54,258 bases of DNA from a virus (IMGVR_UViG_3300027963_000096:1-54258); one strand, 5' to 3'. Positions 830-48,396 are shown, numbered from the stretch's first letter. Numbers and translations are program-made. Notes: generated by a model from the sequence alone, not told the origin.

Positions 830-3534
830 TATTTGACTTTCTTGGTAATTAACTCGTACTGCATGACGTCCATGTTGGGCGAGATTGTAACTTTCTCTTT
901 GACTACACCGCCTGTAGCTTTATTCATGTGCGGCTCGTTGATGTCGTAAGTGCCACGGTTGCCGATAGCCGATTTAATGGCGTTGGGGTTAAAAACGCCC
1001 AAATTTTTAACTCCCATTTCCTTCATGTACATGGCATCATGCCCAAGACTCTTAGCCGCTGCCATTACATCAGGGTCTTCTATCCATGCCCAATCACCGC
1101 TTGCCAATCTATCTTTTATGTAATCAAGCGGTTTTCCGTGGTGCATAGCCCAGATGTTATCTGTCGGTTTAAGTGCTTCTGCTACTTTTGCAACGTGCGC
1201 TGGGTTTTCATAATCAAACGGGTTTTTTACTTGAACATGCACGGGATACACCGCACCGGACATTTTGTCTGCTTTTTTGTTTTCTCCCGCATACTCGTTA
1301 GCAAATTCTGTATCGGGCGTGACAAAAGACATACCTCGAATACCGGGGGTGATAGACGCAAACCCTCCGGTGTTGCGCATTTTTTCGGTGTAGTTTGGAT
1401 CAGCTTCCGGACTGGTTGCTGGGTGCCCACCCTTTACACCACGGGTGTAGTGGCGGGTGCCGTGGTACATGCGGCGTTTCTCTTTGCTGGGCTCCAAGAA
1501 TTTTGCAAGATTGGCATCACGCTCTTTCTGTGGCAGCACCTTGTAGTTCACATGCTCCTCGGCCATAAATTCTTCTGGTCCGACGGAGCCGCCTTTGGCA
1601 AAGCCAAACTTCTTGGCGTTAAACGGCTTGGCTCGGGGCAAGTCTGCCAGTCCGGCGGCCTTGTTGATCTTGGCCACCTCCTTGTCGGTCAGCACGCGGT
1701 TGACTTTCATGGACCCACCAATCAGCCAGTTGCCGGTCATGTTGGGATTGGTCTTATAGCGGTAGTGGCCGCCCACCGGCAACTGGTCGGTGATGTGCGC
1801 CTTGACGGGAATCAGCTTGCCTTGCGCGTTGGTGCCGCGCTTGGTGGCCTCGGCCTGCCAGTCCACGTCGTTGGGCATCTCGACCTCGGCCCATGCGTGG
1901 TTCTCTGGCCGCACGTCGGGTGCTGTAAGCGACGGGTCAGACTTCTCGCCGATGTGGGTGGCGATGGGTAGGTCGCCAGCGTGCCAGCCGGGACGGTAGG
2001 CAAGCGGTCCAATCTTGGACTTCACTTTGCCGTTGGCCATCTCGCCTTCCTTGGCCGCAATCCACTTGTTCATTTCCACTGGTGTGTTGGAGTCTACGAA
2101 CAGCGGGAACAGTTTGCCGGGGTGCTTGGGGTGCACCCGGAACAGCTTGTACGCCTTGGTTGTTTCACGTGGAACATCTTCCCCGACCTCGCCGCCCTCG
2201 GCATAGCGCGGGATGCCGTTCTTCAGCACGTCCTCGCGCATGCCCGGGGTGATGTCGAACGTGTGGACGGGCGTGGTATAAGTTTTTTGATTGTCCCAAT
2301 ATTGCTTCTCAAGCTGCGCTCGGTTAGGAAGATTTATAAATTCACGAAATGGATAACCCATTGCTTCCGCAATTTCTCCACCAGTAACAGGATTAGCACT
2401 TCCAGCCGTTGCAACTTGGCCTTGCTGCACCTGCACGCCGTGCTTCTTGCCGAACTTGTTCAGGAAGGCGGGCACCATCTTGTCGTAGAACCCCTTCATG
2501 CCCTCACCACCAAACTCAAGGTCTTGGTCTTTTAGCTCTCGGTATCCATGTTCATCGGGCTTTTGTTCTAATAGTTTTCGCGCCCCTTCTTTGCCAATGT
2601 ACTGAGGCAGTTGGGAATGGGGCACGTTGTGCTTCTCTACTATCTGGTTACCCTTTGGGTCAAAGGCGAACAAAATACCGCTATCAGGATCATCGTGGTG
2701 CGTCATGTGTGTAATGCGTCCGACGTGTTTACTCAGTTCATATCGCTTGGCCTGCTCCGCACCCGGGGTGATGGCGATCTGGTCGTAGCCCTTCTCAGCG
2801 GCGTGCTGGATCATGGCCTTGAGCGCCAGCTCGTGCCAGTCCTTGGCGTGGGGGCCGTAAGGGATTGCTGGCTCTTCTTCCAGCTTACTCATCTGGTCCC
2901 ATAGCGCCCTCATTTGATTTGTAATAGGCGCCAGCGCTATGTACGGTTTGGGGTCATTTTTAAGTCTAAGTTCCTCCGACTTAGCCAACCACTCATCATG
3001 AAGTTTGGCTCTCTGGGCACTAATTTCTTCTATCTGCTTTTTATTGTGGGCGTCCTCGTAGCCTTTCTCGCGGCCTTGCTGGTGCCAATCCGACTGAATC
3101 TCCTCAAGGTGCAGTATCTTCTTGCCCTCGGGGCTGATGCGGTCCTTGGCCCGGATGCTTGCGATGACGTTGGGCGTGCCGCCAAAGTGGTACTCCACGC
3201 CGGGGAAGCCCTCGCCCTCGGGCATGGGCGTGTGCAGCAGAATCTCTCGGTAGTTCTCGCCACCGGGCAGGGTGTACGTCTCGTGGTGCGTCTGCGTGCC
3301 GGTCAGCTCGCGCTGCTTGAGCGGGAACTTGTTCTTCTTGTTTTTGAGCCTCTCCATGAACGTGGCCCGCTCCATCTGGGGCAGCGCCATCAGCGTCTGC
3401 AGGTCACGGTCCTGCGCCTCCGCAGGCTTGTAGCCGGGCTTCTTGGCCAGCTCGGCCATGTACTCCGCACCCGTGCCCTTGGGGCGGGTGACCTGCTCCA
3501 TGAGCCTGTTGATGGGTGAGTACAGGCCGGTCAC
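829..3534 (-). CDS. Polyvalent multi-domain protein: EEIQSDW domain, LAYRPGWH domain and C-terminal ART-PolyVal-like ADP-ribosyltransferase
   Basis: C-terminal MYHGT...FVTPDTEFANEYA...VYPVHVQVKNP...GHDA...VFNPNAIKSAIGNRGTYD matches the ART-PolyVal pattern. Domains are separated by YAEGG, FAKGG and KATGG. Confidence 0.75.
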   Translation of the reverse strand: MTGLYSPINRLMEQVTRPKGTGAEYMAELAKKPGYKPAEAQDRDLQTLMALPQMERATFMERLKNKKNKFPLKQRELTGTQTHHETYTLPGGENYREILLHTPMPEGEGFPGVEYHFGGTPNVIASIRAKDRISPEGKKILHLEEIQSDWHQQGREKGYEDAHNKKQIEEISAQRAKLHDEWLAKSEELRLKNDPKPYIALAPITNQMRALWDQMSKLEEEPAIPYGPHAKDWHELALKAMIQHAAEKGYDQIAITPGAEQAKRYELSKHVGRITHMTHHDDPDSGILFAFDPKGNQIVEKHNVPHSQLPQYIGKEGARKLLEQKPDEHGYRELKDQDLEFGGEGMKGFYDKMVPAFLNKFGKKHGVQVQQGQVATAGSANPVTGGEIAEAMGYPFREFINLPNRAQLEKQYWDNQKTYTTPVHTFDITPGMREDVLKNGIPRYAEGGEVGEDVPRETTKAYKLFRVHPKHPGKLFPLFVDSNTPVEMNKWIAAKEGEMANGKVKSKIGPLAYRPGWHAGDLPIATHIGEKSDPSLTAPDVRPENHAWAEVEMPNDVDWQAEATKRGTNAQGKLIPVKAHITDQLPVGGHYRYKTNPNMTGNWLIGGSMKVNRVLTDKEVAKINKAAGLADLPRAKPFNAKKFGFAKGGSVGPEEFMAEEHVNYKVLPQKERDANLAKFLEPSKEKRRMYHGTRHYTRGVKGGHPATSPEADPNYTEKMRNTGGFASITPGIRGMSFVTPDTEFANEYAGENKKADKMSGAVYPVHVQVKNPFDYENPAHVAKVAEALKPTDNIWAMHHGKPLDYIKDRLASGDWAWIEDPDVMAAAKSLGHDAMYMKEMGVKNLGVFNPNAIKSAIGNRGTYDINEPHMNKATGGVVKEKVTISPNMDVMQYELITKKVK

Positions 3535-5654
3535 AGCTTGCGCTCCGTGATGCGGATGTAGTCCTTGACCGTGCCGCCTGCGGCCAACTTGTCAAGGATT
3601 GCAGACTCGGGGATGCGCATTTCATGCACTTCCCCTTTGTGCTCCCTGCGAACGTCGTAGCCGGGCTCGTAGGGTGTGCGCTTGGTCTTACCGGTTGCCG
3701 GGTCCTTGATGAACTTGCCCATGTTTGGGCCTAGCTGCGCGTGGTTCTCGCGCATGGGGGAATTGCCCACCAGCGCCTTGCGGATCACCTTAAACGGCGG
3801 CAGGTTGTTCTTGGCGCTATGGGCGGTAAACACGGTGTGCCCCACGTCGTACTTGAACGGCATGGACTCAATCATGTCCTGCATGTCGGCAGCTTTTTTG
3901 CGGACATCGTCACCCAGCGACTGGTAACTGTCCTGCAGGGTCATCATGTTGCGCGTGTTGGTCACGGGCGCCTTCATGCCCGCAGACGTGGCCGCGCTTG
4001 CGATGGCCCTGCGCATCTCCTCCACCGAGGGCGTGGTCGAGCCGCCCCCAGCCATCTTGGGTGGTGGCATGTTGGGCCGCATGGCCGCCATCGCCTGACC
4101 CTGTGGGGTCATTTGCAGGATGTTGCTGCGCGGGGCGCCGGGTGGTTGTCCTTGTGGGGGCGCTGGTGGCTGGCCGGGTTGCCCCGGTTGACCGGCTGGC
4201 GCTGGTGGCTGGCCGGGCTGGCCCTGCGGGCCCGGCTGCATTTGTGGCAGGGGCATCATCTCTTGCTCTGGCAGCATCTGCTGGCCCTCGGCGCCCTGCT
4301 GGAAGTCCACGCCACCAACGGGCAAGCCGGGGCCGCCAGCGGGCGGTACGTACCGTTTGACGTGCATGTTGGGTGCCTCGTTGGCCCCGACGTCCTTCAG
4401 GTTGGCCATGCCCTTGAGCATGATGTGCGCCATCATCTCGTCTTGGCTGGGCTCGCGGTCCTTGACCATGCCGCCCTCGGCGTAGCCAACGGAGCCGCCT
4501 TCGGCCTTGCCTGCGTAGGTCTTGCCCATCAGCACCATGTCGCGCGCGGTCTCTGGCGACACGTTTAGCCGACGCGCGGTCATCATGATGTTCTTGGCCA
4601 GCAGCTCCAGCTTGCCCGCGCCAATGGGCGTGTCCACGCCGGTTTGTGGGGCAAAAGTCCCCCAAGTCAATCCCTGTGCGGACACCGGCTCTAGGCCGAC
4701 CTTGTCCGCGATCTGGCTGCGCCACCACGGTGACAGCATGGCCATCTCAGGGTTGGTGACGCTGGCCCCCGGTATGGCCTGCTTGCCCTTGACGTTCTTC
4801 CAGTTGCGGGTGTCCGCCAGCCCAACGGCGCGGCTCCAGTGCGCGTCGCCCACGGGCGTGGCCGTCTGAAACCCTGTCTCCGGAACGCCACTGGCTTGGA
4901 TGTACAGCGGGACCTTGGGGGTCTTCATGGTCATCTCGCCCGACTCAAGGTACTTGGCCATGGGCCCGGCTTGAGCGGTCTTGTGGTAGGCGTGCCCCGG
5001 CACGTTGCGGATGTCCGCAGGAAATCGCCGGGTGCGCTTGCCTTCAGGCTTGCCCGCGTATTTCAGGAAGTCCGCAAACCGGCCTTGGGTGTTCAGCGCG
5101 TAGGCGGCGGTGCCTCGGGGTATCTCCGTCATGACCTCGCTGGCCGGGGATGCCATGCCCATCAAGTGGTTCATCCTGTCGTACTCACGCACCGCGTCCT
5201 CGTAGCCGATCAGATGCACCATGCGCTGGAACGCCGGATCGGTGATGTACCACGGCTCCATGCCGTGGCGCAGCGACTCGTGCTTCTGGGCCTCGCCCAA
5301 GGTGTCCACCAGCCGTTGCTCGTTCTCCTTGGTCATTACCCGGGCGGCGGCAGCGGAGCCTTTTGGCTTGGCGGCGGCGCCCGGCAGCGTGCCGGGCAGG
5401 TTGCCCTTGCGGCCTTGGTTCATCTCGTACAGATCGGCACGGGTGACGCCAAAGAGCTGCTTGAGCGCCGGGTCTTCGGGCGCCACGCGGGACGCGGCCA
5501 TGGCCGCGATCTCCTTGGGGTTGCCGTAGATGCCGGGGAAGGCCATGCGCTGGGGGTCTTTGACCGTCTGCAGCCTTGGGTTCAGGTTGGCCTTGGCAGC
5601 GGCAACGCGCCTGCTGTCTTGTACGTCGTCGTTGTCAAATTCTGAGTCTGCCAT
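3531..5654 (-). CDS. Multi-module late protein: N-terminal possible HhH-glycosylase-like domain, Pro/Gln-rich linker, C-terminal module
   Basis: 707-aa ORF coupled to the next gene (ATGA overlap). Motifs WY...ASP...PK...GDAHW...AQGLTW; KAEGG, YAEGG, MAGGG and LAAGG separators. Function is inference. Confidence 0.6.
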   Translation of the reverse strand: MADSEFDNDDVQDSRRVAAAKANLNPRLQTVKDPQRMAFPGIYGNPKEIAAMAASRVAPEDPALKQLFGVTRADLYEMNQGRKGNLPGTLPGAAAKPKGSAAAARVMTKENEQRLVDTLGEAQKHESLRHGMEPWYITDPAFQRMVHLIGYEDAVREYDRMNHLMGMASPASEVMTEIPRGTAAYALNTQGRFADFLKYAGKPEGKRTRRFPADIRNVPGHAYHKTAQAGPMAKYLESGEMTMKTPKVPLYIQASGVPETGFQTATPVGDAHWSRAVGLADTRNWKNVKGKQAIPGASVTNPEMAMLSPWWRSQIADKVGLEPVSAQGLTWGTFAPQTGVDTPIGAGKLELLAKNIMMTARRLNVSPETARDMVLMGKTYAGKAEGGSVGYAEGGMVKDREPSQDEMMAHIMLKGMANLKDVGANEAPNMHVKRYVPPAGGPGLPVGGVDFQQGAEGQQMLPEQEMMPLPQMQPGPQGQPGQPPAPAGQPGQPGQPPAPPQGQPPGAPRSNILQMTPQGQAMAAMRPNMPPPKMAGGGSTTPSVEEMRRAIASAATSAGMKAPVTNTRNMMTLQDSYQSLGDDVRKKAADMQDMIESMPFKYDVGHTVFTAHSAKNNLPPFKVIRKALVGNSPMRENHAQLGPNMGKFIKDPATGKTKRTPYEPGYDVRREHKGEVHEMRIPESAILDKLAAGGTVKDYIRITERKL

Positions 5655-5663: not shown

Positions 5664-7163
5664 CTATGTTGCTTTGCGCACGGGCAGCGCGCCGAATACT
5701 GCCGCCATCGGCATCTGGGTGTTGCGCTGAAGTATGCCACCGTAGCCGTGCTCCTGCGCCAGCCGCTCTAGGTCGGTGAAGGCGCCTTGGCGGTTCTCCA
5801 CGCCTTGGTTGGCCTTGGCCGTGAACGGCGTGACGTTGTACTCCTTGGCCAGCGCGTGCAGGTTTTCCGGGTCGCTGGCCACGTCGTACAGGTCGCTGGA
5901 GCGGGCACGGTACTTGTGCGCACCCAGCCCGGGCTCGCCGCGCTCGGGGTTGCCCGCGTAGAAGTAGGTCCGGTCGCGCACGGCGTTCGGGCTGGTCAGG
6001 CGCTCGGCCTCCGCGCCCTTGATGCCCGTGCCGTAGCGGCTGGGGTCGGTGGCGGTCAGGTTGGGCTCGTTGCTGAAGTGCGTCAGCTCCGCGCTGGCCG
6101 GGTTGGCGGGCTTGATCAGGTGGCGCAGGTACGGCGGTATGCCGCCCGCGTAGTCGCCCCGGTTCATCTCGGGCGGCAGCAGGATGGACGCCTGCGGGCC
6201 GTAGGTGAAGCCCTCACTGAGCAACTGCTGCTTGAGGTTGATGAAGCGCTCGGCCTGCGCGGTGTCGCCCTTGCGGGCGGCGTGGTACGCGGCCTCGTCG
6301 AGCTTGCGGACTTGGCCCTTGATCTTGGCGTTGAGCGGGGTGTAGTTCACCACGCTGTTCTGGCCCCGTGTCTCGGTGGTCATGGCGGCCTGCGCCAGCG
6401 GGCTGTACATGCCCGAGTGCGCCGCCCATGCCTTCTCCTCGCCCTTGGGCCCGAACTCGTTGCCGTGCAGCGCGTGGCCGTAGAAGTCGTGGACCGCCCG
6501 AAACATCTCGGTGTCGTTGAGCCCGGTTTGCGGGTCGACGTTGTTCATGGACAGGTGCGGCTCGCCGCCTTGGAACACGTACAGGTGGCCGTTGCCGTGG
6601 ATGTCGCGCAGCATCTCTTTGCTGTTGCGGTAGTTGCCCTCACCGTTGCGGTGGAAGCTCATGTTCACCGGCAACGTGTCGAACTGCTGCTTGGTCTCGC
6701 GGTTGAGCTGCTGGTAGGCCTTGGCCACCAGCTCGTCGTAGTCGCGGGCGTCGCCCACGTGCTCGGGCATCTGGCGCTTGTAGGCGTCGTAGACGGCCTG
6801 CTTGTACTCCGGGCCGCCCTCGTTGGCCAGCGTGAACACGCGCCCGATGGGGGCCTGCTTCTTGAGCGAGCTCTCGGTGTTGGGGATGGGCGCGTAAGGC
6901 CTGCCGAACATCTGGCGGCTGTAGGCGTGCGCCGCCTCGTGCGCGGGCGTTTGCCCGCCACGTATCAGGTCATAGACCTGCGCATCCGAAGGTGGTTGCG
7001 GAACTGCGCCTCGTGGTGATCCGGGTGCAGCTTGGGCACCGGGCCCACCTTCTTCGCGTAGGCCTGTAGCTCTTGCTCCACTTTGCGCAGCAGCGCGTGG
7101 ACGGACTCGGTAGAACGGCCCTTCTTGTGTTGTGTCATATTGCGCCTCGGTAGGTGTGGGCAT
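5664..7163 (-). CDS. Two-domain protein: FRAVHDFYGH putative metal-binding/peptidase-like domain plus C-terminal ART-like domain
   Basis: 499-aa ORF directly after terL. HDxxGH...GEE...H...ETRGQNS motif, then THFS...TDP..YG.G...RTYFY...LYD...GYGG. Confidence 0.55.
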   Translation of the reverse strand: MPTPTEAQYDTTQEGPFYRVRPRAAAQSGARATGLREEGGPGAQAAPGSPRGAVPQPPSDAQVYDLIRGGQTPAHEAAHAYSRQMFGRPYAPIPNTESSLKKQAPIGRVFTLANEGGPEYKQAVYDAYKRQMPEHVGDARDYDELVAKAYQQLNRETKQQFDTLPVNMSFHRNGEGNYRNSKEMLRDIHGNGHLYVFQGGEPHLSMNNVDPQTGLNDTEMFRAVHDFYGHALHGNEFGPKGEEKAWAAHSGMYSPLAQAAMTTETRGQNSVVNYTPLNAKIKGQVRKLDEAAYHAARKGDTAQAERFINLKQQLLSEGFTYGPQASILLPPEMNRGDYAGGIPPYLRHLIKPANPASAELTHFSNEPNLTATDPSRYGTGIKGAEAERLTSPNAVRDRTYFYAGNPERGEPGLGAHKYRARSSDLYDVASDPENLHALAKEYNVTPFTAKANQGVENRQGAFTDLERLAQEHGYGGILQRNTQMPMAAVFGALPVRKAT

Positions 7164-7189: not shown

Positions 7190-8608
7190 TTATACCGCGT
7201 ATGGGTTCTCGGCCTTGCGCGGGTTGGCGTCGGCGTAGTCATCCTCGTCTACCCATTCCTTGGGGAAGTCGATGGTCAGCCAGCCAGCGTCGCGCAAGTA
7301 TCGCAGGGCTTGGCTCATGGCGTCAACAAAGTCGTCGTGCTCGCTGCCGTCGGGGAAGCTGCATATCTGGCTGACCATGCCCTCGGCCCAGTCGCGCACG
7401 TAGCCCTTGCGGTTGCTGGACTCGGGTATCCACAGCCGACCGGCCTTGATGATGTTGGCCACGATGGACAGCCGCTGGACCTTGTCGGCCCGCCCGGGGT
7501 TGTACGGGATGACCGGCACGCCCGCGCGGCGCAGGTCTTGTATAAGACTGATGCCCGCGCTCTTGTCCTCGACCAGCAGCAGGTCCACGCGCTTCTTGTT
7601 CTTGCCCTCACCGTAGACAACCTCGTACTCGTCGAGCACCTTGGGGCGCAGGTCAGGGTACTGCAGGTGCTCCTGCCAGCAGTCCACCACCAGCGCGCAC
7701 ATGCCGCCGTCCTCGGGCTTGTAGACGCCCAGCGTGATGTGCGCCGTGGGGTCGTTGACCGTCTTCTCTGAGGTGGCGCAGTCCAGCGACTGGATCACGA
7801 ACTCGAACTTGGGCAGCGGCTTGCCTGCGGGCCAGAGCTTGAACCAGTCTCGCTTGACGATGCCGCCCTCCTCGGGGTCGATGATCTCGGCGTGAATCTC
7901 TTGGCGGCCCAGCTTGGTGCCCTCGTACTGCAGTATCTGCTTCTGGAAGCTGGGCGCGAGGTTCTTGATGTTGCTGTACGTGGACGCCCGGCTGACGAAC
8001 ACATCGTCGCCCTCGCGGGCGATCAGGTCCATCACCACGGGCTTGGGCTTGGGGGTGGTGGACGCGATCAGCTTGGTGTTCTTGCCCAGCCGGATGCCGA
8101 ACTGGATCATGTCCCACGCCTCTTGCAGGTACTCCCACGCCGCCAGCTCGTCGAGCCAGCCACCGTGGAACTGCGGCCCCCGGAAGCGCTCGGGCTCCGA
8201 CGCGGGGATGCCCTTGATCAGGCTGCCGTTGATCAGGGTGAGCTCGTGCAGGCTGCTGTTGTACTTGGCCACCAGCGCCTTGGGGATCACCGACAGCAGC
8301 CCAGAGTCGCCCTCGAAGCACGTGCCGCGCAGGTCGGCGCTGGTGGGTGCCGAGACGAGCCAGCGGGTGCCCGGCTGCTCCCACGCCCACCAGCCCAGAT
8401 TCTCGGCGGCTGCGCGGGTCTTGCCCGCACCACGGCCCGCGCACATCAGCCAGATGGACCAGAAGCTGTCCAGCGGCTCGAGCTGGTGCTTGTGGGCGGC
8501 TATGAGCCAGCGGGCGCGCCACTCGAAGGCCGCGCGCTGCTCGGGCTTGAGCTTGGCGTACTGCTCGCGGACCTTGGGGTCTTGGAGCAGGGCGGCTGCA
8601 CTACTCAC
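7190..8608 (-). CDS. terL: Terminase large subunit
   Basis: Walker A AGRGAGKT, Walker B GWLDE, RGPQF, STTPKP coupling motif, RNase H-like nuclease (SLD...VEDK...HDDFVDA). Confidence 0.95.
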   Translation of the reverse strand: MSSAAALLQDPKVREQYAKLKPEQRAAFEWRARWLIAAHKHQLEPLDSFWSIWLMCAGRGAGKTRAAAENLGWWAWEQPGTRWLVSAPTSADLRGTCFEGDSGLLSVIPKALVAKYNSSLHELTLINGSLIKGIPASEPERFRGPQFHGGWLDELAAWEYLQEAWDMIQFGIRLGKNTKLIASTTPKPKPVVMDLIAREGDDVFVSRASTYSNIKNLAPSFQKQILQYEGTKLGRQEIHAEIIDPEEGGIVKRDWFKLWPAGKPLPKFEFVIQSLDCATSEKTVNDPTAHITLGVYKPEDGGMCALVVDCWQEHLQYPDLRPKVLDEYEVVYGEGKNKKRVDLLLVEDKSAGISLIQDLRRAGVPVIPYNPGRADKVQRLSIVANIIKAGRLWIPESSNRKGYVRDWAEGMVSQICSFPDGSEHDDFVDAMSQALRYLRDAGWLTIDFPKEWVDEDDYADANPRKAENPYAV

Positions 8609-9086
8609 TGGCTTGGCGGGTCAGGGCGAGGTTCTTCAGCACCTCACCGAACACGTCGAAGCTGACCTCGACGGCCAGCGGGGCCTCGTCATCACCGGCC
8701 ACCACCGTGCGGTCGCCGTAGACCTTGGGCAGGTACTTGGCGGCCAGCCACTTGCGTGCGTCCATGCGCAGCCGGTTGTGCGCGATGCTGCCTGCGTCGT
8801 AGCGCTTGTTGCCCGCTTCGTCGAACACGGCCAGCGGCTCGGTGTCCACGATGTCCTGTATCTGGTCTGCCAAACAATGCGCGCCATCTCTCCGCGCATC
8901 CGCGTAACGCTGACAAAAGTCCGGTTTCTCCCGAAGCCAGCGATAAATTGTCACTGGGTCCGGCATGTGCGCAGACTGCGTTATTTTGGCCATCGGCTCA
9001 CCGCAGGCCAGACGCCCGCATATCTCATCCACGAGGGTATTGGTGTACTGCGTAGGCCTGCCCATCTTTTTGCCTGTTGCCATCAT
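8601..9086 (-). CDS. terS: Terminase small subunit (Sf6/P22-like HTH type)
   Basis: GRPTQY...EICGRLACGE...MPD..TIYRWL...YADAR...RLRMDARKWLAAK..PKVYGD; overlaps the terL start. Confidence 0.9.
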   Translation of the reverse strand: MMATGKKMGRPTQYTNTLVDEICGRLACGEPMAKITQSAHMPDPVTIYRWLREKPDFCQRYADARRDGAHCLADQIQDIVDTEPLAVFDEAGNKRYDAGSIAHNRLRMDARKWLAAKYLPKVYGDRTVVAGDDEAPLAVEVSFDVFGEVLKNLALTRQASE

Positions 9087-9287: not shown

Positions 9288-9488
9288 CTAGTTGCCGTAC
9301 AGGCTTCTTGGGTGCCAGTCCTTTTCGGGCTCCCAGTCGTGGTCCACGGCGGGCTCGACGTGGGTCTCCTTGATGTGGTAGCCCACGCCACGGTCTAACA
9401 CGATCTCAAGGGCGTCGTCCTCGGTGGATGCCTCGACATCGCTGTGCCAGTCGCCGTTAATGAACACGGCGTAGAGTGTCTTGGTCAT
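9288..9488 (-). CDS. Hypothetical early protein (66 aa)
   Basis: GGAGG RBS; ATGA overlap with the upstream gene. Confidence 0.65.
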   Translation of the reverse strand: MTKTLYAVFINGDWHSDVEASTEDDALEIVLDRGVGYHIKETHVEPAVDHDWEPEKDWHPRSLYGN

Positions 9489-9682
9489 GCTGCCTCCGCG
9501 AACGCGAGCAGGGCTGCGGCCAGCTCCTTGGCCTGAGCGGGCGTCAGAACCACGCTCGCGCTGGCCGTGGGCACCGCAATGTTCAGCCAGACATCGTCCC
9601 GTCCGTTGGGCGTATCCCAGTTCGCGTAAACATCCACGCTTACACGGGTGCCGCGCTCTGTGGTGATTGTGGTGGGTTCCAT
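9485..9682 (-). CDS. Hypothetical early protein (65 aa, MEPTTITTERG...)
   Basis: AGGAG RBS before the ATG at 9682, preferred over the longer track start. Confidence 0.65.
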   Translation of the reverse strand: MEPTTITTERGTRVSVDVYANWDTPNGRDDVWLNIAVPTASASVVLTPAQAKELAAALLAFAEAA

Positions 9683-9731
9683 GGTGATCTCCTGTGTGGG
9701 TGTGTGGGAGGGGGCCGAGGCCCCCTGTGGT

Positions 9732-9914
9732 TTAAGAGACGATGCGTTTGATGTAGCTGGTATCGCAGACTCCGCCGTCCACGATCTTGCCATTTTTCAG
9801 CGGGTAGACCAATTTGACATTGAAGCCGTCAATCTGGGCGATGGTGTAGACATGGGCGTCCGGCTCGTCAACAACGACTACGCGCATACCGACAGACAGT
9901 TCTTTAGGGTTCAT
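9732..9914 (-). CDS. Small beta-rich (SH3/KOW-like) hypothetical protein
   Basis: ELSVGMRVVV pattern; AAGGA RBS; follows an AT-rich promoter-like gap. Confidence 0.55.
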   Translation of the reverse strand: MNPKELSVGMRVVVVDEPDAHVYTIAQIDGFNVKLVYPLKNGKIVDGGVCDTSYIKRIVS

Positions 9915-9934
9915 GATATTTCCTTAGTGTGTAT

Positions 9935-10015
9935 ACGTTGGTCGGAAGTAACCAACGCCTTTATTGTAACTTCAAATTACAGTAAAAACCGCTTTTGAAA
10001 AAATAAATCGTAGGT
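9935..10015 (-). promoter_or_regulatory. AT-rich putative leftward promoter region
   Basis: AT-rich intergenic island in a GC-rich genome; TACAAT -10-like hexamer at 9963-9968 on the minus strand; TGTAA-N7-TTACA inverted repeat. Confidence 0.4.
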
Positions 10016-10023
10016 GTTTACCC

Positions 10024-10278
10024 TTAGTGCTCGGTTGGCCGCCTCCAGCGGTTGCGGATCGTCTCGCCCAGCTTCTCGATGTCCACGCAGTTGTCGGCCA
10101 GCTCCGCGCAGGCCTCGTTCTCGATGGCGATGGCGTGCTTGGTGGTCTGGATGGCCACGGTCATCATCTCCGCCTTGGCCAGCGCCAGCGCCTCGTCAAA
10201 CTCTTGCTGGGTGAAAAACTTCACGTGGTCGTTGGTGCCCAGCAGTTGCCGGGCGAGGGGGCTCAGTTCTTTCTGCAT
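10024..10278 (-). CDS. Hypothetical protein (84 aa)
   Basis: AGGAG RBS; co-oriented chain. Confidence 0.65.
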   Translation of the reverse strand: MQKELSPLARQLLGTNDHVKFFTQQEFDEALALAKAEMMTVAIQTTKHAIAIENEACAELADNCVDIEKLGETIRNRWRRPTEH

Positions 10279-10281
10279 CGT

Positions 10282-10518
10282 CTACTCCTGTGATTGGCCC
10301 ATGACACGGGTCTCCATGACCTTGTTCGCGCGCTTCAGACCCGCGTTCTCGGCCTTGAGCTCCTCCACCTTAGTGGTCAGGAACGTCAGCCGAGCCTCGG
10401 CCTGCTTGATCCAGTCCGCGACCTCGGCAGGCATGCGCCACTCCATGACGGAGTCTGTGGGGGCCACAATGGCCGTTTTGACGCGTTTGGCGGCTGGTTT
10501 GGGGGTGGTGGTGCTCAT
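10282..10518 (-). CDS. Coiled-coil hypothetical protein (78 aa, MSTTTPKP...)
   Basis: GGAGG RBS and ATGA overlap at 10515-10518; heptad VEELKAENAGLK. Confidence 0.65.
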   Translation of the reverse strand: MSTTTPKPAAKRVKTAIVAPTDSVMEWRMPAEVADWIKQAEARLTFLTTKVEELKAENAGLKRANKVMETRVMGQSQE

Positions 10519-10679
10519 TGGGCCTCCAGCTCGTCCAGAGCCTGCTCCAGCTCGTGCTGGGCGTCCACCAGCTCGCCCAGCAGCTTCGCGTCGGGGTGGT
10601 CCTCGATGTAGGCCAAGCGTTCGCGCTCGGCCCACGCTAGGTGCTGCCGTTCGGCGGCGGTCAGGGGGCGGATGTTCAT
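10515..10679 (-). CDS. Small hypothetical protein (54 aa, MNIRPLTAAE...)
   Basis: Hand-translated; AGGAG RBS; ATGA coupling to the next gene. Confidence 0.6.
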   Translation of the reverse strand: MNIRPLTAAERQHLAWAERERLAYIEDHPDAKLLGELVDAQHELEQALDELEAQ

Positions 10680-10719
10680 GGTCGTCTCCTAAAAGTGGCC
10701 CCCAAGGGGGCCGGGTTGG

Positions 10720-11586
10720 TTATGCGAATGAGTGCTCGTACTTGGCCACGAACTCGTCGGCCACCTTGTCCAGCTTCAGCGCGGCCATGCTGTCGGCCAG
10801 CGTCCAGAGCGCCTTGTTGAGCTTGACGTTCTCGTTGACGCCGCCCACCGCGCGCGTGGTGGTGCGGCGGCCAGTGGAGCTGCGTCCGGGAATGCCGCCC
10901 TTGAGCATGTTCTCCTGCACGCGGTTGAACGTGGTCCACAGGTCACCCTTGATGTCCTCACGGCGATGGGCGGCCAGCAGCCGGTTGGCCGTGACCGGGG
11001 CGGTGTCACCCCAGCGCAGTTGCATGGCCGCCGTGGCGAACGCGCGCTGCTCGTCTTGGCCCAGCTCGATGCCCTTGTACTCGTCGATGCGGTAGCCGAT
11101 CTGCTTGGCGTCCTCCAGCACCCGGGTGGCGCCCTCGATGACGTCGTCCACCACGGTGCCACTGTGACGCACGCGGATGTTGTTGAACATGTCACCGGCG
11201 ATCAGGCCGTTGCTGCACACGAACCGGAACACGCCCGACATGATCTGGTAGCTGCTGCTGCCGTCGTGGGAGTTGAGCAGGATGATCTCGGGCACCTCGT
11301 CCTTGGTGCTGATCTGGCTTGCGTGACGCATGCGCACCATGTGCTTGGTGTGCTCGCGCTTGCCTGCGTCGCGCACCTTGGTCTGGCGAATCTCGTAGGG
11401 CTCGAAGCCCTCACCGCGCAGGGCGTCGATCACTTGGATCGTGGGGATGAAGCTGTAGCGCTCGCCACGGCTCTCGTGGGCGGCGTCGGCCATCACGCTG
11501 GGGGCGTGGTAGGCGATCTGTGCGTTGGACAGGGGCAGTTGCGAACGGAACTCGGACTGCTTGGTGGAGGATGCGTAACGGATCAT
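10720..11586 (-). CDS. DUF932/DUF945 family protein (plasmid YubP-like)
   Basis: APSV.A..AHESR.ERY.FIPT...LRGEGF.P...KREHTKHMVRMR...EIILLNSHDGSSSYQ...FRFVCSNGL...DLWTTFNRVQEN. Confidence 0.9.
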   Translation of the reverse strand: MIRYASSTKQSEFRSQLPLSNAQIAYHAPSVMADAAHESRGERYSFIPTIQVIDALRGEGFEPYEIRQTKVRDAGKREHTKHMVRMRHASQISTKDEVPEIILLNSHDGSSSYQIMSGVFRFVCSNGLIAGDMFNNIRVRHSGTVVDDVIEGATRVLEDAKQIGYRIDEYKGIELGQDEQRAFATAAMQLRWGDTAPVTANRLLAAHRREDIKGDLWTTFNRVQENMLKGGIPGRSSTGRRTTTRAVGGVNENVKLNKALWTLADSMAALKLDKVADEFVAKYEHSFA

Positions 11587-11627
11587 GATGAGGTCTTTCA
11601 AAAGATGCCCCCGAGGGGGCGGGGGGT

Positions 11628-11921
11628 TTAGCGGGAGGTAACGCGCACCGAGATGCAGGAGGTGTTCTTGGTGTAGGCATCGTAGATGGCCGCACCATCG
11701 GGGCCTTGGTCCTTGATGAAGAAGTCCTTGTCGAACACCTTACGGTCCATGTCCACCAAGGTGGCCATGAAGAAGTTGCCCTCGTGGGACTCACCCGTCT
11801 TCTTGATCGCCGCCTTAATCGCATCAGCCTCAGCCGTGAGGTCCGCGATCTGTGCGAGCAGCATGCCCAAGCGGTCCACAGAGCCTTCGTTCAATTCCAC
11901 CACCAGTTTTGCTTTAGCCAT
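11628..11921 (-). CDS. Hypothetical early protein (97 aa)
   Basis: GGAG RBS; first gene after the putative promoter at about 11980. Confidence 0.7.
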   Translation of the reverse strand: MAKAKLVVELNEGSVDRLGMLLAQIADLTAEADAIKAAIKKTGESHEGNFFMATLVDMDRKVFDKDFFIKDQGPDGAAIYDAYTKNTSCISVRVTSR

Positions 11922-11978
11922 TTTTTACTCCAATGTGTTTGTGTTGAGAAGTACCGCAGTGTTTGCTGCGATGGAAGA

Positions 11979-12001
11979 AGTATACAACGATTTTGTTGTT
12001 G
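11979..12001 (-). promoter_or_regulatory. Putative promoter -10 (TATACT) abutting the operator-like palindrome ACAAC-N6-GTTGT
   Basis: The 18-mer ACAACGATTTTGTTGTTG (11984-12001) is identical to 16457-16474. Confidence 0.55.
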
Positions 12002-12004
12002 TAC

Positions 12005-12185
12005 GAGTCTTTTGCAAATATTTTCAAATTATTTTTTATCTGTTGTTTTTTGCAGACAATGCCTTCAATTACTTCAAACTGCCGTGCTTCATGCTTCAAC
12101 CCCTAAAGGGGTGTTGAAGCAGTTGAAGCAGTTTGCCGTGATTCTGAAGCGCTTCTGAAGCTACTTGAAGCAGTTGAAGCACGCT
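12005..12185. repeat. Iteron-like (T)TGAAGC(A) array in inverted arrangement plus AT-rich tract; putative replication origin
   Basis: Four CTTCA units left of and six TGAAG units right of a central CCCTAAAGGG hairpin (12101-12110); AT-rich at 12010-12050; downstream of primase-helicase. Confidence 0.6.
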
Positions 12186-12216
12186 GTTTTTTACACGTAT
12201 GTAAAACATTACGCGC

Positions 12217-14669: not shown

Positions 14670-14756
14670 TACTTATCCATGTGCTATCCGGATGAAGGAA
14701 CGTCGGCGGGCGTGGATAAGGCGCGTTCAGGCGTGGGATCAGCACGCCCTAGCCGG
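14670..14756 (-). promoter_or_regulatory. Putative structured 5' leader of the primase gene
   Basis: Stems CGGC/GCCG, GGCGTG/CACGCC and GCG/CGC; loop CTTATCCA is complementary to TGGATAAG just before the ATG. Confidence 0.45.
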
Positions 14757-14773
14757 GTTCGGGTCGCAGTCTA

Positions 14774-15252: not shown

Positions 15253-15253
15253 T

Positions 15254-16474: not shown

Positions 16475-16494
16475 CTTAACTGGAGTACACACAC

Positions 16495-37336: not shown

Positions 37337-37535
37337 TCTTGATGCCAGTGATTAGCCCAATAAAGCCGCCAATGATTGTCTGGAAGGCTGGGCCTACGAT
37401 TTCAAACAGCTTGTTGTTGTCAACCTTCTCGTCAAAAAACCCAAGAACAAAAACCGACACCATCGCCATAACCGTAGCCGCCAAGGTAACAGATGCGATG
37501 AGGGTCACCCAGCTTGATAGCCGTTCTTTGTTCAT
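37308..37535 (-). CDS. Two-TM membrane protein (holin/antiholin-like)
   Basis: Two hydrophobic helices; located between holin and endolysin. Confidence 0.6.
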   Translation of the reverse strand: MNKERLSSWVTLIASVTLAATVMAMVSVFVLGFFDEKVDNNKLFEIVGPAFQTIIGGFIGLITGIKIGSNSDTTN

Positions 37536-37939
37536 TTCTTGCTCCGCATATCAGCCAGTTTTTCAACGGTGCGGCCACCAAAATACGCCAAGAAGATTAT
37601 CTGGCCCCACTGGCCGAGAAGCTGGACGTAGGTTTCTTGGGCGTTATACCCAAAAGCCGACATCATCGTGAACGTAAAGAAACCCACGAAGATAGCTATA
37701 AGGGCCATTGGGCGGATGTTTTTGGATAGCCAAGAGTCTGACCCCATGTCAGCCTGCCAGCGACCAGTAATGTTTTCCTGTTCCACCTCGAACAGCTTGG
37801 TGTCGTTCGCCATCTTGGCGAGTTCACCGTTCTGGGCAAGCGTAGCCAGCTCAAGCTGCGCTTTGGCTTTGGCTTCCGGGTCAGGAATTAGTTTGTCGAT
37901 CAGCTTGTTGCCGATGCCAAGGATTGAGTCAAGTAGCAT
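37532..37939 (-). CDS. Holin of 3-TM (GTA-release type) family
   Basis: KLIDKLIPDP..KAKAQLEL...RW.ADM.SDSWLSKNIRP...AYFGGRT.EK. Confidence 0.85.
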   Translation of the reverse strand: MLLDSILGIGNKLIDKLIPDPEAKAKAQLELATLAQNGELAKMANDTKLFEVEQENITGRWQADMGSDSWLSKNIRPMALIAIFVGFFTFTMMSAFGYNAQETYVQLLGQWGQIIFLAYFGGRTVEKLADMRSKK

Positions 37940-44292: not shown

Positions 44293-44639
44293 TATTGCCC
44301 CGGTGATGGACTGAGGGTGTCGAGGTTGCCGTTGTTCGTGGGAATCTGCGTGTTCTGCTCAGGCGACAAGACGTAGTCGTTGGTGCCGCCCGTCGTGATG
44401 CCATCCGGCACCACGTCAATATTGACATCGGGCCTCGGAAAACGCAAGTTTATCCGCTCTGTCTGGCGCGCGGCGAGCCGGTACGGGTCAAGCTGATCCG
44501 CGCAGCCTTGGTCGCACACGCGCAGGCCCGGGAAGTTAGGGTCCGAGCCCATCGAGGAAAACGCGCGCTTCATCTTGCACCGGTCACAGACGCCGATGGC
44601 TAGGGAAGCATTGCCTTCGGTGTCAAGGAAACGGGGCAT
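44292..44639 (-). CDS. Neck-region protein with CDRC...C...C motif
   Basis: AIGVCDRC...GLRVC..C.D..DP...LRFPRPD; TAATG coupling. Confidence 0.7.
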   Translation of the reverse strand: MPRFLDTEGNASLAIGVCDRCKMKRAFSSMGSDPNFPGLRVCDQGCADQLDPYRLAARQTERINLRFPRPDVNIDVVPDGITTGGTNDYVLSPEQNTQIPTNNGNLDTLSPSPGQ

Positions 44640-45712
44640 TATCGTGTGTAAACTGAAATGTTAGGGGCGAGATAGATCGGCGACTTGTCGCGCTCTTCCG
44701 ACTCGGCGTCGTTCAAGTACTGGGCCGCCATCTTCTCAAGGTAGCCAATACGGTCGAGCTGCACGCCGGGGAGCTCAAGGCTCATCCGGTGGGACAGGTT
44801 CATCAGCACAGCCTCATACCAGCGCTGTGGAACTTCCAGCTCGCCGTTCAGGGCGCCCACGTCCATGATCTGGCGGGAGTACCACACCGTCATCTGCACA
44901 AAGGGGTCCGAGGGCACCGGCCACAGGTACATCGTGGGCTGGGGGATCGTGCGGTCAAACCAGAACTGGAAGGGCTGGTTGGCCGTGAAGTTCTTGTTGG
45001 GCAGGTTGGTGTAGTCGTCGCGGTTCAGGCGGGCCATCTGCAGCTCGCGCGAGTTGTTTCCAAAGTACAGCTCCCGCAGCGCCAGCGTAGTGTTGCCGGT
45101 GGCCCGCATGCGGTAGTAGTTCACGTTCTGGCCGGGGTCAATGTCCGTCCACACCCACTGCATATCCGACACGGCCACGTTGGTGCCCGTGGCCAGAGCG
45201 CTCCACGTAGACCCATCCGTAGAGTATTCCAGCACGTAGCTCCACGTAGCGCTGCCGCCGCCCGACACGTAGGGCAGGAAGCCGATGGAGCCGATGTACT
45301 GGGGGTCGTTGGTGCCGTAGATCACGGCGATGTTGCCGTTGCTGGAAGTCTGCTGGCAGTAGGTGGCTGTGTCGCCGTCGTAGACGTTGGCCACCACCCC
45401 GCCTGCGGAGGTGGTGTAATTGCCCACAGGGCGGTTCATCTGCCGGTACAGCACGTTCTGGGCGTCTATGGTGCCCACCGGCAGGCTGTAGATGTACTGG
45501 TTGGCGTTGAGGCCGATTACGGTCTTGTTGATGGCCCAGTAGTTGATGCCAAGGTTGGCCAAGTTGGAAAGGAAGAAAAACAGCGACTCCTTGGCCGACT
45601 GCACCTGCTCAACCGTAAGTTCTTCGGCCAGCTTACCGCAGCGCCGGGCACCATGGTCGATGAGCGTCTGTACTGAGATTACGGTCTGACCAACGGTGCC
45701 CGAGTAGGCCAT
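44639..45712 (-). CDS. Head-to-tail adaptor with inserted discoidin-like domain
   Basis: SGT...LID.G.RRCG...A..SL.....AN.GIN.W; R..Y..LPNK....P.QFWFDR...LWPVP; VPQRW.EA; insert DGD..T...LEYSTDG.TW...YYR...ELYF. Confidence 0.7.
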   Translation of the reverse strand: MAYSGTVGQTVISVQTLIDHGARRCGKLAEELTVEQVQSAKESLFFFLSNLANLGINYWAINKTVIGLNANQYIYSLPVGTIDAQNVLYRQMNRPVGNYTTSAGGVVANVYDGDTATYCQQTSSNGNIAVIYGTNDPQYIGSIGFLPYVSGGGSATWSYVLEYSTDGSTWSALATGTNVAVSDMQWVWTDIDPGQNVNYYRMRATGNTTLALRELYFGNNSRELQMARLNRDDYTNLPNKNFTANQPFQFWFDRTIPQPTMYLWPVPSDPFVQMTVWYSRQIMDVGALNGELEVPQRWYEAVLMNLSHRMSLELPGVQLDRIGYLEKMAAQYLNDAESEERDKSPIYLAPNISVYTR

Positions 45713-45987: not shown

Positions 45988-46644
45988 TTACCAGTTAGAA
46001 GATTTCTTGGAAGGAGCGCAAGTTGATACCTTGCGGGTAGTAACTTGGCCGCCCTTCTTGTACCCATAAAACTGCTCGCCATCCCCACCCTTGGAGCCGC
46101 CATCGGCCATCTGCTGGGGGTTACCCAGCGGCTTTTGCGGGGGCTGCAGCTCTCGGCTGTTGTCGCGCGAGGCCACCGTGGGCGTGTTGGGGGTGCTGGA
46201 GGTCATGCCGCCGAGGCTGGCAATGCCGCCATCGGCCATCTTCTTGGTCTTTGCAGACTGACGGAAGGCCTCGGCAGTTGGTGCGCCCTTGCTGCCCGGC
46301 TTGCGCATGCGCTCGTCGGAACCCTCGGCGATGCGTTTTTGCTTGGCGTGGATGTTGGCGTACAAGCCGCCTGCTTTCATCTTCTTTGCTAAAAATAATT
46401 TATCAACCATTTCCAGCCTTTGAGGTTTAGTTGTTACATCGTTAATGATATTCAGGCGTTCTGATTTACTTTTCCCGGCCTCGTAGAATCCGTCTCTTTT
46501 CAGAGAGCTAACCACCCCACCCTTTTTCATGCTGTCGGCCTTGACAAACTCCTTGCCGACCTTCTGCGGCACGCCACCAAAGCCGCCCTTGGTATGAGCA
46601 GCGGCCTCCATCAGGCGGTGTTGGGCGGGGGATTTGCTTGGCAT
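45988..46644 (-). CDS. Basic concatemer of small modules separated by GG motifs (218 aa)
   Basis: MKKGG, MKAGG, MADGG x2, YKKGG. Confidence 0.75.
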   Translation of the reverse strand: MPSKSPAQHRLMEAAAHTKGGFGGVPQKVGKEFVKADSMKKGGVVSSLKRDGFYEAGKSKSERLNIINDVTTKPQRLEMVDKLFLAKKMKAGGLYANIHAKQKRIAEGSDERMRKPGSKGAPTAEAFRQSAKTKKMADGGIASLGGMTSSTPNTPTVASRDNSRELQPPQKPLGNPQQMADGGSKGGDGEQFYGYKKGGQVTTRKVSTCAPSKKSSNW

Positions 46645-47097: not shown

Positions 47098-48396
47098 TCA
47101 GCACTTGGCGTTGCCGCCTTTTTTGTAGCCACCGGTGTGGATGACCTGTTTTTCCGTTGGTTTGGAGCCGATGCCTAGCAATTTCTTTACGCTCCCCACT
47201 GGGTCGCGGAAAGCCTTTGCCATCTCCATCTCGTCTTCCCCCGGCCCAATTGCCTTGTCGTAGGCGCCTTTGGATGCGTCTATCAGCTCAATATCGACCG
47301 TTCCGCCCTTCTTGAAGGTGCCCGATTGACGGCTGTTGCTTACCGGCTGGGAAACAGGGCGCTTTGGCATTGCCACGGCATGGCCAGTGCTAACACTGCC
47401 CCCCGTGGCGTAATGCTTTTTTGCGGCACCGCCTTTTTTCATCGGATTGGTCAGACCACCCGTGGCGTAGCGCTCGTAGCCGGGATCGGCTTTGCTGGTG
47501 TTAGCAGGACGGTTTGCAAAGTCAACCTTCCCGCCTTTTTTCATCGGATTGGTCAGGCCACCAGTAGCCATACCGTTTACGACGCCACCAGTTGCGTAAC
47601 GCTCGTAACCGGGGTTGGTCTTCTTGCGCTCCATCTTGGTATTGGCAAAGGTGCTTTCGTTGCCTTCCACAGTGCCGCCAGCAGCGTAGCGCTCGTAACC
47701 GGGATTTGTTGCCTTGCGCTCCATCTTGGTTTTAACAAAAGCGCCTTCGTTACCCTTAACGGTGGTCTTGTCCATCGCGGTGTCAATAGCCGCGCCCGAG
47801 ACCTTGCCGCCCTTTTTCATGGGGTTGGTCAGGCCGCCCGTGGCCAGCTTGAGCTTGGTGCCCTTGCCGCCCGTATGCTCTTGCATATCGTGCTGCTTAA
47901 AGGCTTTCATGATCATGGCCTTGTCTTGCGACTTGTCGCCAGCCTTGCCGCCCTTCTTCATGGCGGGCATGCCACCGGGGGCAACCATAGGCGCCGCAGG
48001 CGCGCCCATAGCGGCCTTGCGGGCCAGCAAGGCCTTCATCATGGCCGCTTTGCGGGGGTCCATACGAGCACCCATAGGAGCGCCCATAGGGGCAGCCATG
48101 GGTGCGGCCATCGCTGGCGCGCCCATCATGCCGCCCATGGCCTTCTTCTCGACCTTGCCGCCGTTTTTCATCATAGAGCCGGACATGGCCTTGCGGCGGT
48201 CCGACATCGAAGGCTTCTTGGGCGAAGCTCCGTCTTCGCAAGACTCTTCGTTGCCTCCCTTCATGAAGTTTTTACCCTTCATGTTGGTGTGGCCGTTGTC
48301 GTCCTTGTCCATTGCGACGTGACCGCCCTTTTTCAGCTTCAAGATTACCGAAGGCTCGGTGGTCTCCATCTTCACCATTGGTTTGAATTGGCCCAT
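47098..48396 (-). CDS. Met/Lys/Gly-rich protein with 16 GG motifs (432 aa)
   Basis: AAGGAG RBS; MKKGG x4, YATGG x3, LKKGG, FKKGG, YKKGG, YAAGG, LATGG, MATGG, MKNGG, KAMGG, FMKGG. Confidence 0.8.
   Translation of the reverse strand: MGQFKPMVKMETTEPSVILKLKKGGHVAMDKDDNGHTNMKGKNFMKGGNEESCEDGASPKKPSMSDRRKAMSGSMMKNGGKVEKKAMGGMMGAPAMAAPMAAPMGAPMGARMDPRKAAMMKALLARKAAMGAPAAPMVAPGGMPAMKKGGKAGDKSQDKAMIMKAFKQHDMQEHTGGKGTKLKLATGGLTNPMKKGGKVSGAAIDTAMDKTTVKGNEGAFVKTKMERKATNPGYERYAAGGTVEGNESTFANTKMERKKTNPGYERYATGGVVNGMATGGLTNPMKKGGKVDFANRPANTSKADPGYERYATGGLTNPMKKGGAAKKHYATGGSVSTGHAVAMPKRPVSQPVSNSRQSGTFKKGGTVDIELIDASKGAYDKAIGPGEDEMEMAKAFRDPVGSVKKLLGIGSKPTEKQVIHTGGYKKGGNAKC

Follow-up and report, generated by a model that had tools for sequence, protein, structure and literature searches.

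In phage T4, the injected ADP-ribosyltransferase Alt belongs to a set of head-internal proteins with a shared cleavage motif. Outside T4, P1 and the giant phages, the loading of unrelated modules into heads and their later separation are largely obscure. The polyvalent proteins, which are thought to be the injected toolkits of phages, are described in the main text of Iyer, Burroughs, Anand, de Souza and Aravind (2017, PMC5512222) as mosaic proteins with a late or virion gene context and rapid domain shuffling. The viral record IMGVR_UViG_3300027963_000096 (an entire IMG/VR record, 54,258 bases long, which is classified as linear with a completeness of about 85%; hereafter the window) encodes two such proteins, and one short Gly-Gly motif links these mosaic effector proteins to two abundant disordered proteins of the same genome. 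The motif is real and under selection at the protein level. It sits in flexible joints and tails of four late proteins that are inherited together, and there it delimits cassettes ('module plus motif') that have moved from one relative to another. This shared junction motif in polyvalent or head-internal proteins, together with its two partner families of disordered proteins, appears to be new: text searches of the literature found no account of a Gly-Gly motif at the joints of polyvalent or phage virion proteins.

The four motif proteins, and a motif-free neighbor from the same gene block, are the following.

829-3534, minus strand: polyvalent protein of 901 residues (B type), directly upstream of the portal gene, with YAEGG at residue 444 (2191-2205), FAKGG at residue 645 (1588-1602) and KATGG at residue 872 (907-921), all on the minus strand.

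3531-5654, minus strand: polyvalent protein of 707 residues (A type), with KAEGG (4494-4508) and YAEGG (4470-4484) in tandem, MAGGG (4041-4055) and LAAGG (3573-3587), all on the minus strand.

5664-7163, minus strand: motif-free protein of 499 residues (module c7) in the same block of genes between terminase and portal.

45988-46644, minus strand: protein of 218 residues, basic (isoelectric point 10.1), with five strict motifs.

47098-48396, minus strand: protein of 432 residues, basic, rich in Gly, Lys and Met and predicted to be disordered, with 15 strict motifs.

The strict pattern [YFMLK][AK]xGG was scored over the 56 called open reading frames (ORFs) and has 28 matches, 27 of which lie in the 901-, 707-, 218- and 432-residue proteins (three, four, five and 15 copies, respectively). 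A sequence-only reading of the window had placed about 30 copies in five late ORFs. Four of these ORFs stand. The fifth, given as 728 residues, is an ORF of 793 residues that does contain the three reported sites (FSGGG, FAKGG and LRTGG), of which a single one is strict where 0.95 would be expected (p = 0.6); its 21 Gly-Gly dipeptides result from a glycine content of 18%. The 16 copies reported for the 432-residue protein are 15 strict ones plus FMKGG, a near-copy outside the pattern, while the positions reported for the 901-residue protein are correct when taken as seven-residue windows.

Composition-preserving shuffles (1000 per ORF) yield an expectation of 0.19-0.70 motifs per ORF, so that the enrichment over shuffled sequences asked for by the earlier reading is present in each of the four ORFs (p = 0.003 for the 901-residue protein and <0.001 for the 707-, 218- and 432-residue proteins). 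The motif prefix precedes 27 of the 46 Gly-Gly dipeptides in these ORFs versus 1 of 131 in the other 52 (Fisher p = 1.8e-18). The same enrichment is seen relative to other Gly-rich ORFs: the internal controls of 793, 784 and 1348 residues have 52 Gly-Gly dipeptides and one motif among them. As had been noted, the motif is also absent from the replication enzymes, capsid and terminase: the strict pattern is not matched by either terminase subunit, the capsid protein, the primase, the polymerase or the helicases of the window.

For comparison, 42 related IMG/VR loci were fetched with the C-terminal part of the portal. Most of these are close kin, and counts across loci are therefore not independent events; the main independent points are the distant phage MW202675 and the group of L067 and L079. 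Throughout the 42 loci, only orthologues of these four proteins are rich in the motif. All 21 members of the 432-like group contain 3-15 copies, and at least one motif is found in 24/24 of the 707-like, 30/32 of the 901-like and 15/16 of the 218-like proteins. Motif-free are the large terminase (28/28), the small terminase (20/20), the capsid protein (27/27), the 324-like (21/21) and Cpn10-like proteins (39/39) and the adaptor (13/13), as well as 35 of the 38 scaffold-like orthologues. Ten loci cover the whole stretch from terminase to adaptor, and each of them (10/10) encodes the disordered protein along with polyvalent proteins that bear the motif. The nearest GenBank record, the uncultured phage MW202545, encodes a motif-bearing polyvalent protein of 890 residues, a protein of the disordered type (449 residues, ten motifs) and a 171-residue protein with two motifs. 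MW202675 has a capsid protein of 32% identity and a different gene order; here, three large proteins with 1-3 motifs each follow the portal and are in turn followed by a 382-residue protein with four strict motifs (five looser). No motif-rich genes were found in Caulobacter phage RLK or Alcaligenes phage QDWS535, which have the same head module with the terminase adjoining the portal, nor in the read parts of Roseobacter phage CRP-901 (33 of 53 kb) and Pelagibacter phage HTVC023P (40 of 61 kb), where the terminase likewise adjoins the portal.

Conservation extends beyond the search pattern. When the first residue of the pattern is counted as position 0, the residue at +6 is Val or Ile in 16 of the 27 window copies, compared to 8.5% Val plus Ile in those proteins, which bears out the earlier remark that x-V often follows the motif. 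In 160 distinct contexts from the large proteins of relatives, position +6 is Val (71%) or Ile (12%), position -1 is mostly Gly, Arg or Lys, and position 1 is Ala (82%) or Lys (18%). The small proteins have Lys (56%) or Ala (44%) at position 1. The extended form, (G/R/K)-[Y/K/M/F/L]-[A/K]-x-G-G-x-[V/I], is here called a 7-residue short linear motif. The codons around GGC GGC vary synonymously (GCC/GCT/GCA and GTC/GTT/GTG/GTA), and this variation, together with the Val/Ile at +6 that was no part of the search pattern, indicates selection on the protein.

Several other explanations for the motif were rejected. A recombination signal at the DNA level is at odds with the varying codons, and self-cleavage of the G|S type with the lack of a conserved nucleophile at +5. 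A frameshift-prone AAA AAG run at the K-type motifs is not supported, as the codons are inconsistent between copies. The likeness to the GroES mobile loop fails on relatives that have the Cpn10-like gene without the motif. Tandem nonapeptides similar to RTX repeats occur, by eye, three in a row at most and in a different register.

The large proteins are built from modules that are separated by the motif. In the 901-residue protein, a conserved N-terminal module (residues 1-446) is followed by YAEGG, a second module (residues 449-644), FAKGG, an ART-PolyVal module, KATGG and a conserved tail of 25 residues. The ART-PolyVal domain was matched by Pfam at residues 733-862 (E = 1.3e-10), and residues 458-646 match phrog_30118 end to end. 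The 707-residue protein consists of an N-terminal module (residues 1-382), the tandem KAEGG and YAEGG, module c1 (conserved, with a Pro/Gln-rich spacer), MAGGG, module c5, LAAGG and a conserved 13-residue tail. These tails are a general trait: every A-type protein ends with the motif plus the conserved 13 residues and every B-type protein with the motif plus about 25 residues, the end of which is predicted to be helical. The 499-residue module has been fused into a motif-bearing giant polyvalent protein in two of seven relatives (L035 and L044).

When 63 orthologous large ORFs were cut at the motif, 212 segments of at least 25 residues were obtained, which fall into 52 clusters. The clusters recur in differing order and number, in ORFs that range from 500 residues up to single giants of 2035-2393 residues; the modules are thus swappable, as the sequence-only reading had proposed. 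Cluster representatives match ART-PolyVal, PcfJ, ASCH and LPD23, which identifies the large proteins as polyvalent proteins as defined by Iyer et al. 2017 and agrees with the effector nature ascribed to them earlier (ART-PolyVal in the window; the other three in relatives). The position of the motif between domains, and its correlation with boundaries in homologues, also held up. Of 538 internal homology breakpoints, 120 are no more than 15 residues away from a motif, versus 39.8 +/- 6.0 for random placement (maximum 60 in 2000 trials). In four giant relatives that were scanned uncut, none of the 25 motifs falls inside any of the six Pfam domain hits (0/25), and the ART-PolyVal match ends exactly 10 residues ahead of a motif in four of four proteins, that of the window included.

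An AlphaFold2 model of the 901-residue protein (22-row alignment; mean predicted local distance difference test, pLDDT, of 59) shows a confident N-terminal domain up to residue 446, and the confidence collapses at residue 447, at the motif of residues 444-448. Confidence is also high for the ART fold, which extends to about residue 855; the low-confidence stretch beyond it contains the third motif (residue 872). The second motif is uninformative for the linker position, since the middle module was not modelled. The Gly-Gly dipeptides within the folded N-terminal domain do not carry the motif prefix. Residues 67-444 contain a GNAT-like core (VIA-align Z 9-10.7, about 130 residues aligned), which is not a protease fold. 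An enzymatically active domain is suggested by the invariant residues H116, D131, E145, Q147-D149 and H151. This module (2197-3534, minus strand; residues 1-446) has no Pfam match and includes a long coiled-coil insert; tRNA-acetylating toxins are among its VIA-align matches. A Foldseek comparison of the model with the PDB gave nothing at E <= 1e-3; the weak rows include GNAT enzymes and, at E = 0.048, a pre-ejectosome chain of cyanophage A4. Sequence searches of the PDB with the capsid and polyvalent profiles gave zero matches.

The two small proteins are of a different nature. The 432-residue protein (isoelectric point 10.0; 14% Lys, 15% Gly, 9% Met) has a mean pLDDT of 42.8 in its AlphaFold2 model, with 348 of the 432 residues below 50. 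Across 20 orthologues the invariant columns are largely the Gly-Gly pairs and the N-terminal 25 residues, and the spacers between the motifs differ in length and sequence. Proteins of the 218-residue family are strung together from conserved peptides about 40 residues long, and K-M-[K/A]-x-G-G follows each of them; relatives differ by whole modules inserted or deleted precisely at the motif. In the window protein, phrog_16759 and the beginning of phrog_22033 ('virion structural protein') are matched by the N-terminal module, and phrog_16028 by residues 92-136. The minimal form of this type (about 97-100 residues) has two modules, two motifs and a tail of 6-7 residues.

Both families are abundant in protein collections, with at least 4792 relatives of the 432-residue and at least 1904 of the 218-residue protein in metagenomes, all of them without a functional name. 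Among the 120 matches listed for the 432-residue protein, each has 7-16 motifs; among the 120 listed for the 218-residue protein, at least one motif is present in 120 and at least two in 114. Shorter forms of 86-118 residues keep the motif in 119 of the 120 matches listed. A C-terminal Trp ends 116 of the 120 listed relatives of the 218-residue protein (mostly as ...CW or ...NW), and a C-terminal Cys ends 57 of the 120 listed relatives of the 432-residue protein. Small motif proteins also occur in phages without polyvalent proteins (L067:12459-13028, L079:16750-17313, L072:11126-12601 and L077:16014-16499). These basic proteins combine other short conserved peptide modules, e.g. '...EF..G.LHSGS...KQAVAIA.SEA', and their 'HKHE..LHPGKP' module is found in the 432-residue protein as well.

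The search for a protease gave the result that the sequence-only reading had anticipated for a conventional prohead protease. No peptidase family was recognized by Pfam (40 window proteins), PHROGs (30) or NCBIfam (10), with several head-region ORFs being without fold assignment. The 40 window proteins gave no Pfam match to a clan CE cysteine protease or to a C39 peptidase. The MPTase domain was sought in the same way, and no peptidase Pfam match was found in the 901-, 707- and 499-residue ORFs, in 20 module representatives or in four giant relatives. The genes in common with RLK (portal, Cpn10-like, scaffold-like, 182 residues, 190 residues and capsid protein) can hardly encode a motif-specific protease, since RLK is without the motif. 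The 182-residue head-region protein matched only unnamed viral clusters in the ESM Atlas. These negatives are no proof of a protease-free genome, and a host enzyme is possible.

What, then, does the motif do? The position in the head operon, the polyvalent family, the PHROG match and the likeness to pelagiphage HTVC028P (whose annotated internal virion proteins have among them a domain resembling the N-terminal module) suggest that the four proteins reside inside the head as cargo and leave it together with the DNA. We tentatively favor, at somewhat less than an even chance, a motif that acts as a non-covalent binding element ('sticker') or co-assembly tag for such cargo. With 7-16 copies in each of the multivalent disordered proteins and 2-9 in each effector protein, the motif would connect these proteins either with one another or to one common head component, and any motif-flanked module could be loaded into the prohead without a protease. 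On this proposal, the need for exposed linkers would explain why the motif is found at domain borders, and recombination between its repeated copies would reshuffle the cassettes. The restriction of the motif to the same four orthologue groups, the selection on the protein, the linker position, the multivalency, the disorder, the conserved stickers with variable spacers and the failure to recognize a protease speak for such a tag. The motifs near the C-termini point the same way, as does a protein of 956 residues in L064, which has one motif and an element like the B-type tail near its N-terminus only, followed by roughly 870 motif-free residues, a terminal tag on an otherwise motif-free protein. 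The relatives that have the same head module without the motif (RLK, QDWS535 and the read parts of CRP-901 and HTVC023P) also speak for it. A complex prediction with the capsid protein and the last 46 residues of the 901-residue protein scored 0.00; it was run without controls and is evidence neither way.

A bolder form of the binding tag is a protease-free, plug-and-play cargo code, in which a disordered 'matrix' protein and sticker-flanked effector modules would co-assemble, perhaps as a condensate-like inner body, and be packaged and injected together. This form is considered unlikely. If true, the lineage would swap its injected effectors simply by moving 'module plus motif' cassettes.

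A number of points weigh against a binding tag. Its binding partner and the binding itself are putative, and the capsid location of the four proteins is something that we infer. The presence of the motif at nearly every module joint exceeds the strict need of a loading tag, and the 218-residue family, with its conserved peptides parted by the motif, resembles a precursor that is meant for cutting. Polyvalent proteins have moreover been argued, in the main text of Iyer et al. 2017 (PMC5512222), to need processing into units. Co-occurrence of the small motif proteins and the motif-bearing polyvalent proteins is not strict either: it held in the ten loci and in MW202545 and MW202675 but fails the other way. 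In L067, L079 and L072 there are small proteins with three motifs, and the terminase directly abuts the portal with no polyvalent protein in between; L059 has a motif-free protein of 937 residues at the polyvalent position. From these exceptions and L064, the home of the motif seems to be the small basic proteins, with the polyvalent proteins sharing it.

The main rival to the binding tag is a cleavage site, recognized by an endoprotease of the host or by a phage enzyme of unrecognized fold. This is given a somewhat lower chance than the tag. Its support comes from the placement of the motif at module joints and from the 218-residue family, in which the motif follows every one of the conserved peptides of about 40 residues and whole modules are inserted or deleted exactly there. 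In addition, a targeting peptide with its cleavage site would have the same layout as the large proteins ('cargo, motif, conserved tail') or the L064 protein ('tag, motif, cargo'). Precedents are the cleavage motifs common to several head proteins in T4 and phiKZ-like phages and the Gly-Gly sites of adenovirus and African swine fever virus (ASFV). A role in the processing of gp7 of phage P22 is said to be played by host oligopeptidase A. P22 development reportedly needs this enzyme (Conlin et al. 1992). The processing of polyvalent proteins was predicted in the main text of Iyer et al. 2017 (PMC5512222), and their MPTase was not found here. The products would be single effectors freed from their terminal targeting tails and small basic peptides chopped from the disordered proteins. 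However, short linear motifs must sit in linkers in any case, so that the joint position alone does not favor cleavage. No peptidase family was recognized in the window proteins, module representatives or giant relatives, and beyond the motif proteins themselves no gene is specific to the motif-bearing phages. The capsid, scaffold-like and portal proteins are motif-free, unlike in T4, phiKZ and adenovirus; some motifs lie 4-7 residues from a C-terminus; and the register is off the adenovirus consensus, with Ala/Lys in place of Met/Ile/Leu. A head protease encoded by the phage is further opposed by RLK, QDWS535 and the read parts of CRP-901 and HTVC023P, which share the head module and have no motif-rich genes, and self-cleavage is unlikely given the missing nucleophile. 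If the motif is nevertheless a cleavage site, an unrecognized protease must exist.

The motif may also be a passive joint, i.e. an unrecognized flexible hinge that is kept by recombination between short coding repeats (GCC NNN GGC GGC NNN GTC). This is improbable. It would fit the borders of module insertions, deletions and swaps at the motif and the use of GGC for 42 of the 54 motif glycines compared to 113 of the 186 other glycines in the same genes. Yet the flanking codons vary synonymously while residues 0, 1 and +6 are kept, and a hinge needs neither an aromatic residue or Met at position 0 nor a Val at +6. The motif is also kept close to C-termini, where nothing is joined, and is invariant in orthologues with diverged spacers. 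As for mere chance, a by-product of Gly/Lys-rich low-complexity sequence might be suspected from the abundance of Gly and Lys in the 432- and 218-residue proteins; the shuffles (p <= 0.003 per ORF), the Fisher test, the Gly-rich control ORFs and the conserved position across orthologues have already refuted this, and its probability is negligible. Whichever function applies, the motif is a concrete and mutable handle, and if it is a loading tag it would offer a natural route to package chosen proteins into phage heads.

The genome around the motif proteins is podovirus-like, with the late genes on the minus strand. Their order is small terminase, large terminase, the 499-, 707- and 901-residue ORFs, portal, Cpn10-like, scaffold-like, the 182- and 190-residue ORFs and capsid protein; downstream of the capsid gene follow the 324-, 432-, 138- and 218-residue ORFs, an SU10-type adaptor and the tail and injection genes. 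The remaining features of the window are listed below.

2-829, minus strand: N-terminal portion of the portal, truncated at the contig end; motif-free.

7190-8608, minus strand: large terminase; motif-free.

8601-9086, minus strand: Sf6-type small terminase; motif-free.

9485-23702: replication module with DUF932, an AAA_25 primase-helicase-like protein (696 residues), a DUF2800/PD-(D/E)XK nuclease, an Enc34-type single-stranded DNA-binding protein, a family A DNA polymerase and an SNF2 helicase.

24381-25838: ORF of 485 residues with an SLT transglycosylase domain.

28351-30732, minus strand: Gly-rich ORF of 793 residues in the tail or injection region, outside the motif feature, with one strict match at chance level.

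36024-36665, minus strand: second SU10-adaptor-like protein.

37532-37939: GTA-type holin with three transmembrane segments.

44639-45712, minus strand: SU10-adaptor-like protein of 357 residues with an inserted F5/8 type C (discoidin-like) domain.

48407-49381, minus strand: ORF of 324 residues in the head module; motif-free.

49461-50375, minus strand: major capsid protein of 304 residues (Phage_capsid_4, Mu gpT-like); motif-free.

Within 48407-52954, minus strand: head-module ORFs of 182 and 190 residues; motif-free.

51524-52471, minus strand: coiled-coil scaffold-like protein of 315 residues; motif-free.

52481-52954, minus strand: Cpn10/GroES-like protein of 157 residues between the portal and scaffold-like genes; motif-free.

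53180-53332, minus strand: basic ORF of 50 residues directly after the portal, with two loose Gly-Gly sites and a poly-Lys end.

53319-54251, minus strand: C-terminal part of the portal at the other contig end.

The two portal parts are not in one frame across the junction of the contig ends, and the portal seems to lack about 240 codons compared to the 826-residue portal of MW202545. The record therefore represents a permuted genome that is nearly complete but interrupted by a gap in the portal gene. The 50-residue ORF has a homologue in MW202545 (64% identity) and may be a further small member of the class of motif proteins. All relatives with this head module keep the Cpn10/GroES-like gene: it is present in 39 of 39 loci, and the annotations of RLK-like phages and of the Alcaligenes, Roseobacter and Pelagibacter phages include it. 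By capsid protein, the nearest isolates are the Caulobacter phages RLK, RW, KcrB and GB2A (77% identity). The binned capsid relatives are mostly contigs assigned to freshwater Betaproteobacteria, binning being weak host evidence. In RLK (L047, 2445-5248), the large terminase is annotated in two pieces with a methyltransferase gene in between, which suggests an inserted element.

When compared to known systems, the closest parallels for one short motif in several head-internal proteins are the prohead-protease motifs of T4 (gp21) and of phiKZ and SPN3US. These T4 and gp175-type systems differ in that no protease gene is recognized here, the capsid protein is motif-free and 35 of 38 scaffold-like orthologues are without the motif; their motif is of the x-E type, whereas the present one is based on Gly-Gly. 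In this last respect the locus is more similar to the adenovirus protease (adenain) and pS273R of ASFV, which have Gly-Gly sites in basic core proteins or polyproteins of a double-stranded DNA virus particle. Here, however, no clan CE match was found by Pfam, and where adenain has Met, Ile or Leu two residues before the Gly-Gly, the motif has Ala or Lys, with the hydrophobic residue one position further upstream. The double-glycine leaders of bacteriocins are single and N-terminal and belong to a C39/ABC exporter, in contrast to the internal motifs of this locus that are repeated up to 15 times.

Capsid-targeting peptides, such as the capsid-targeting sequence (CTS) of T4 and the cargo-loading peptides of encapsulins, are likewise short, portable and attached to unrelated cargo, and in the present proteins conserved tails adjoin the motif. 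The element differs by being repeated many times per chain, at internal as well as terminal positions, and its binding to the shell is putative. The Dar system of P1, in which DarA and Hdf load DarB and other antirestriction proteins into heads, shares the combination of small head proteins with a giant injected effector, as far as the main text of PMC5512222 describes it. In P1 a head protease processes DarA, and the likeness rests on gene layout instead of sequence.

The polyvalent proteins themselves are the nearest relatives. The domain repertoire is the same (ART-PolyVal in the window; PcfJ, ASCH and LPD23 in relatives), and the gene context is likewise a late or virion one, here between large terminase and portal on a viral contig. 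The MPTase (frequent but not universal among polyvalent proteins), other peptidases and the MuF domain were not found here. The words 'glycine' and 'linker' do not occur in the main text of PMC5512222. What sets the present locus apart from the described polyvalent proteins is a defined 7-residue joint motif that they share with two separate disordered proteins.

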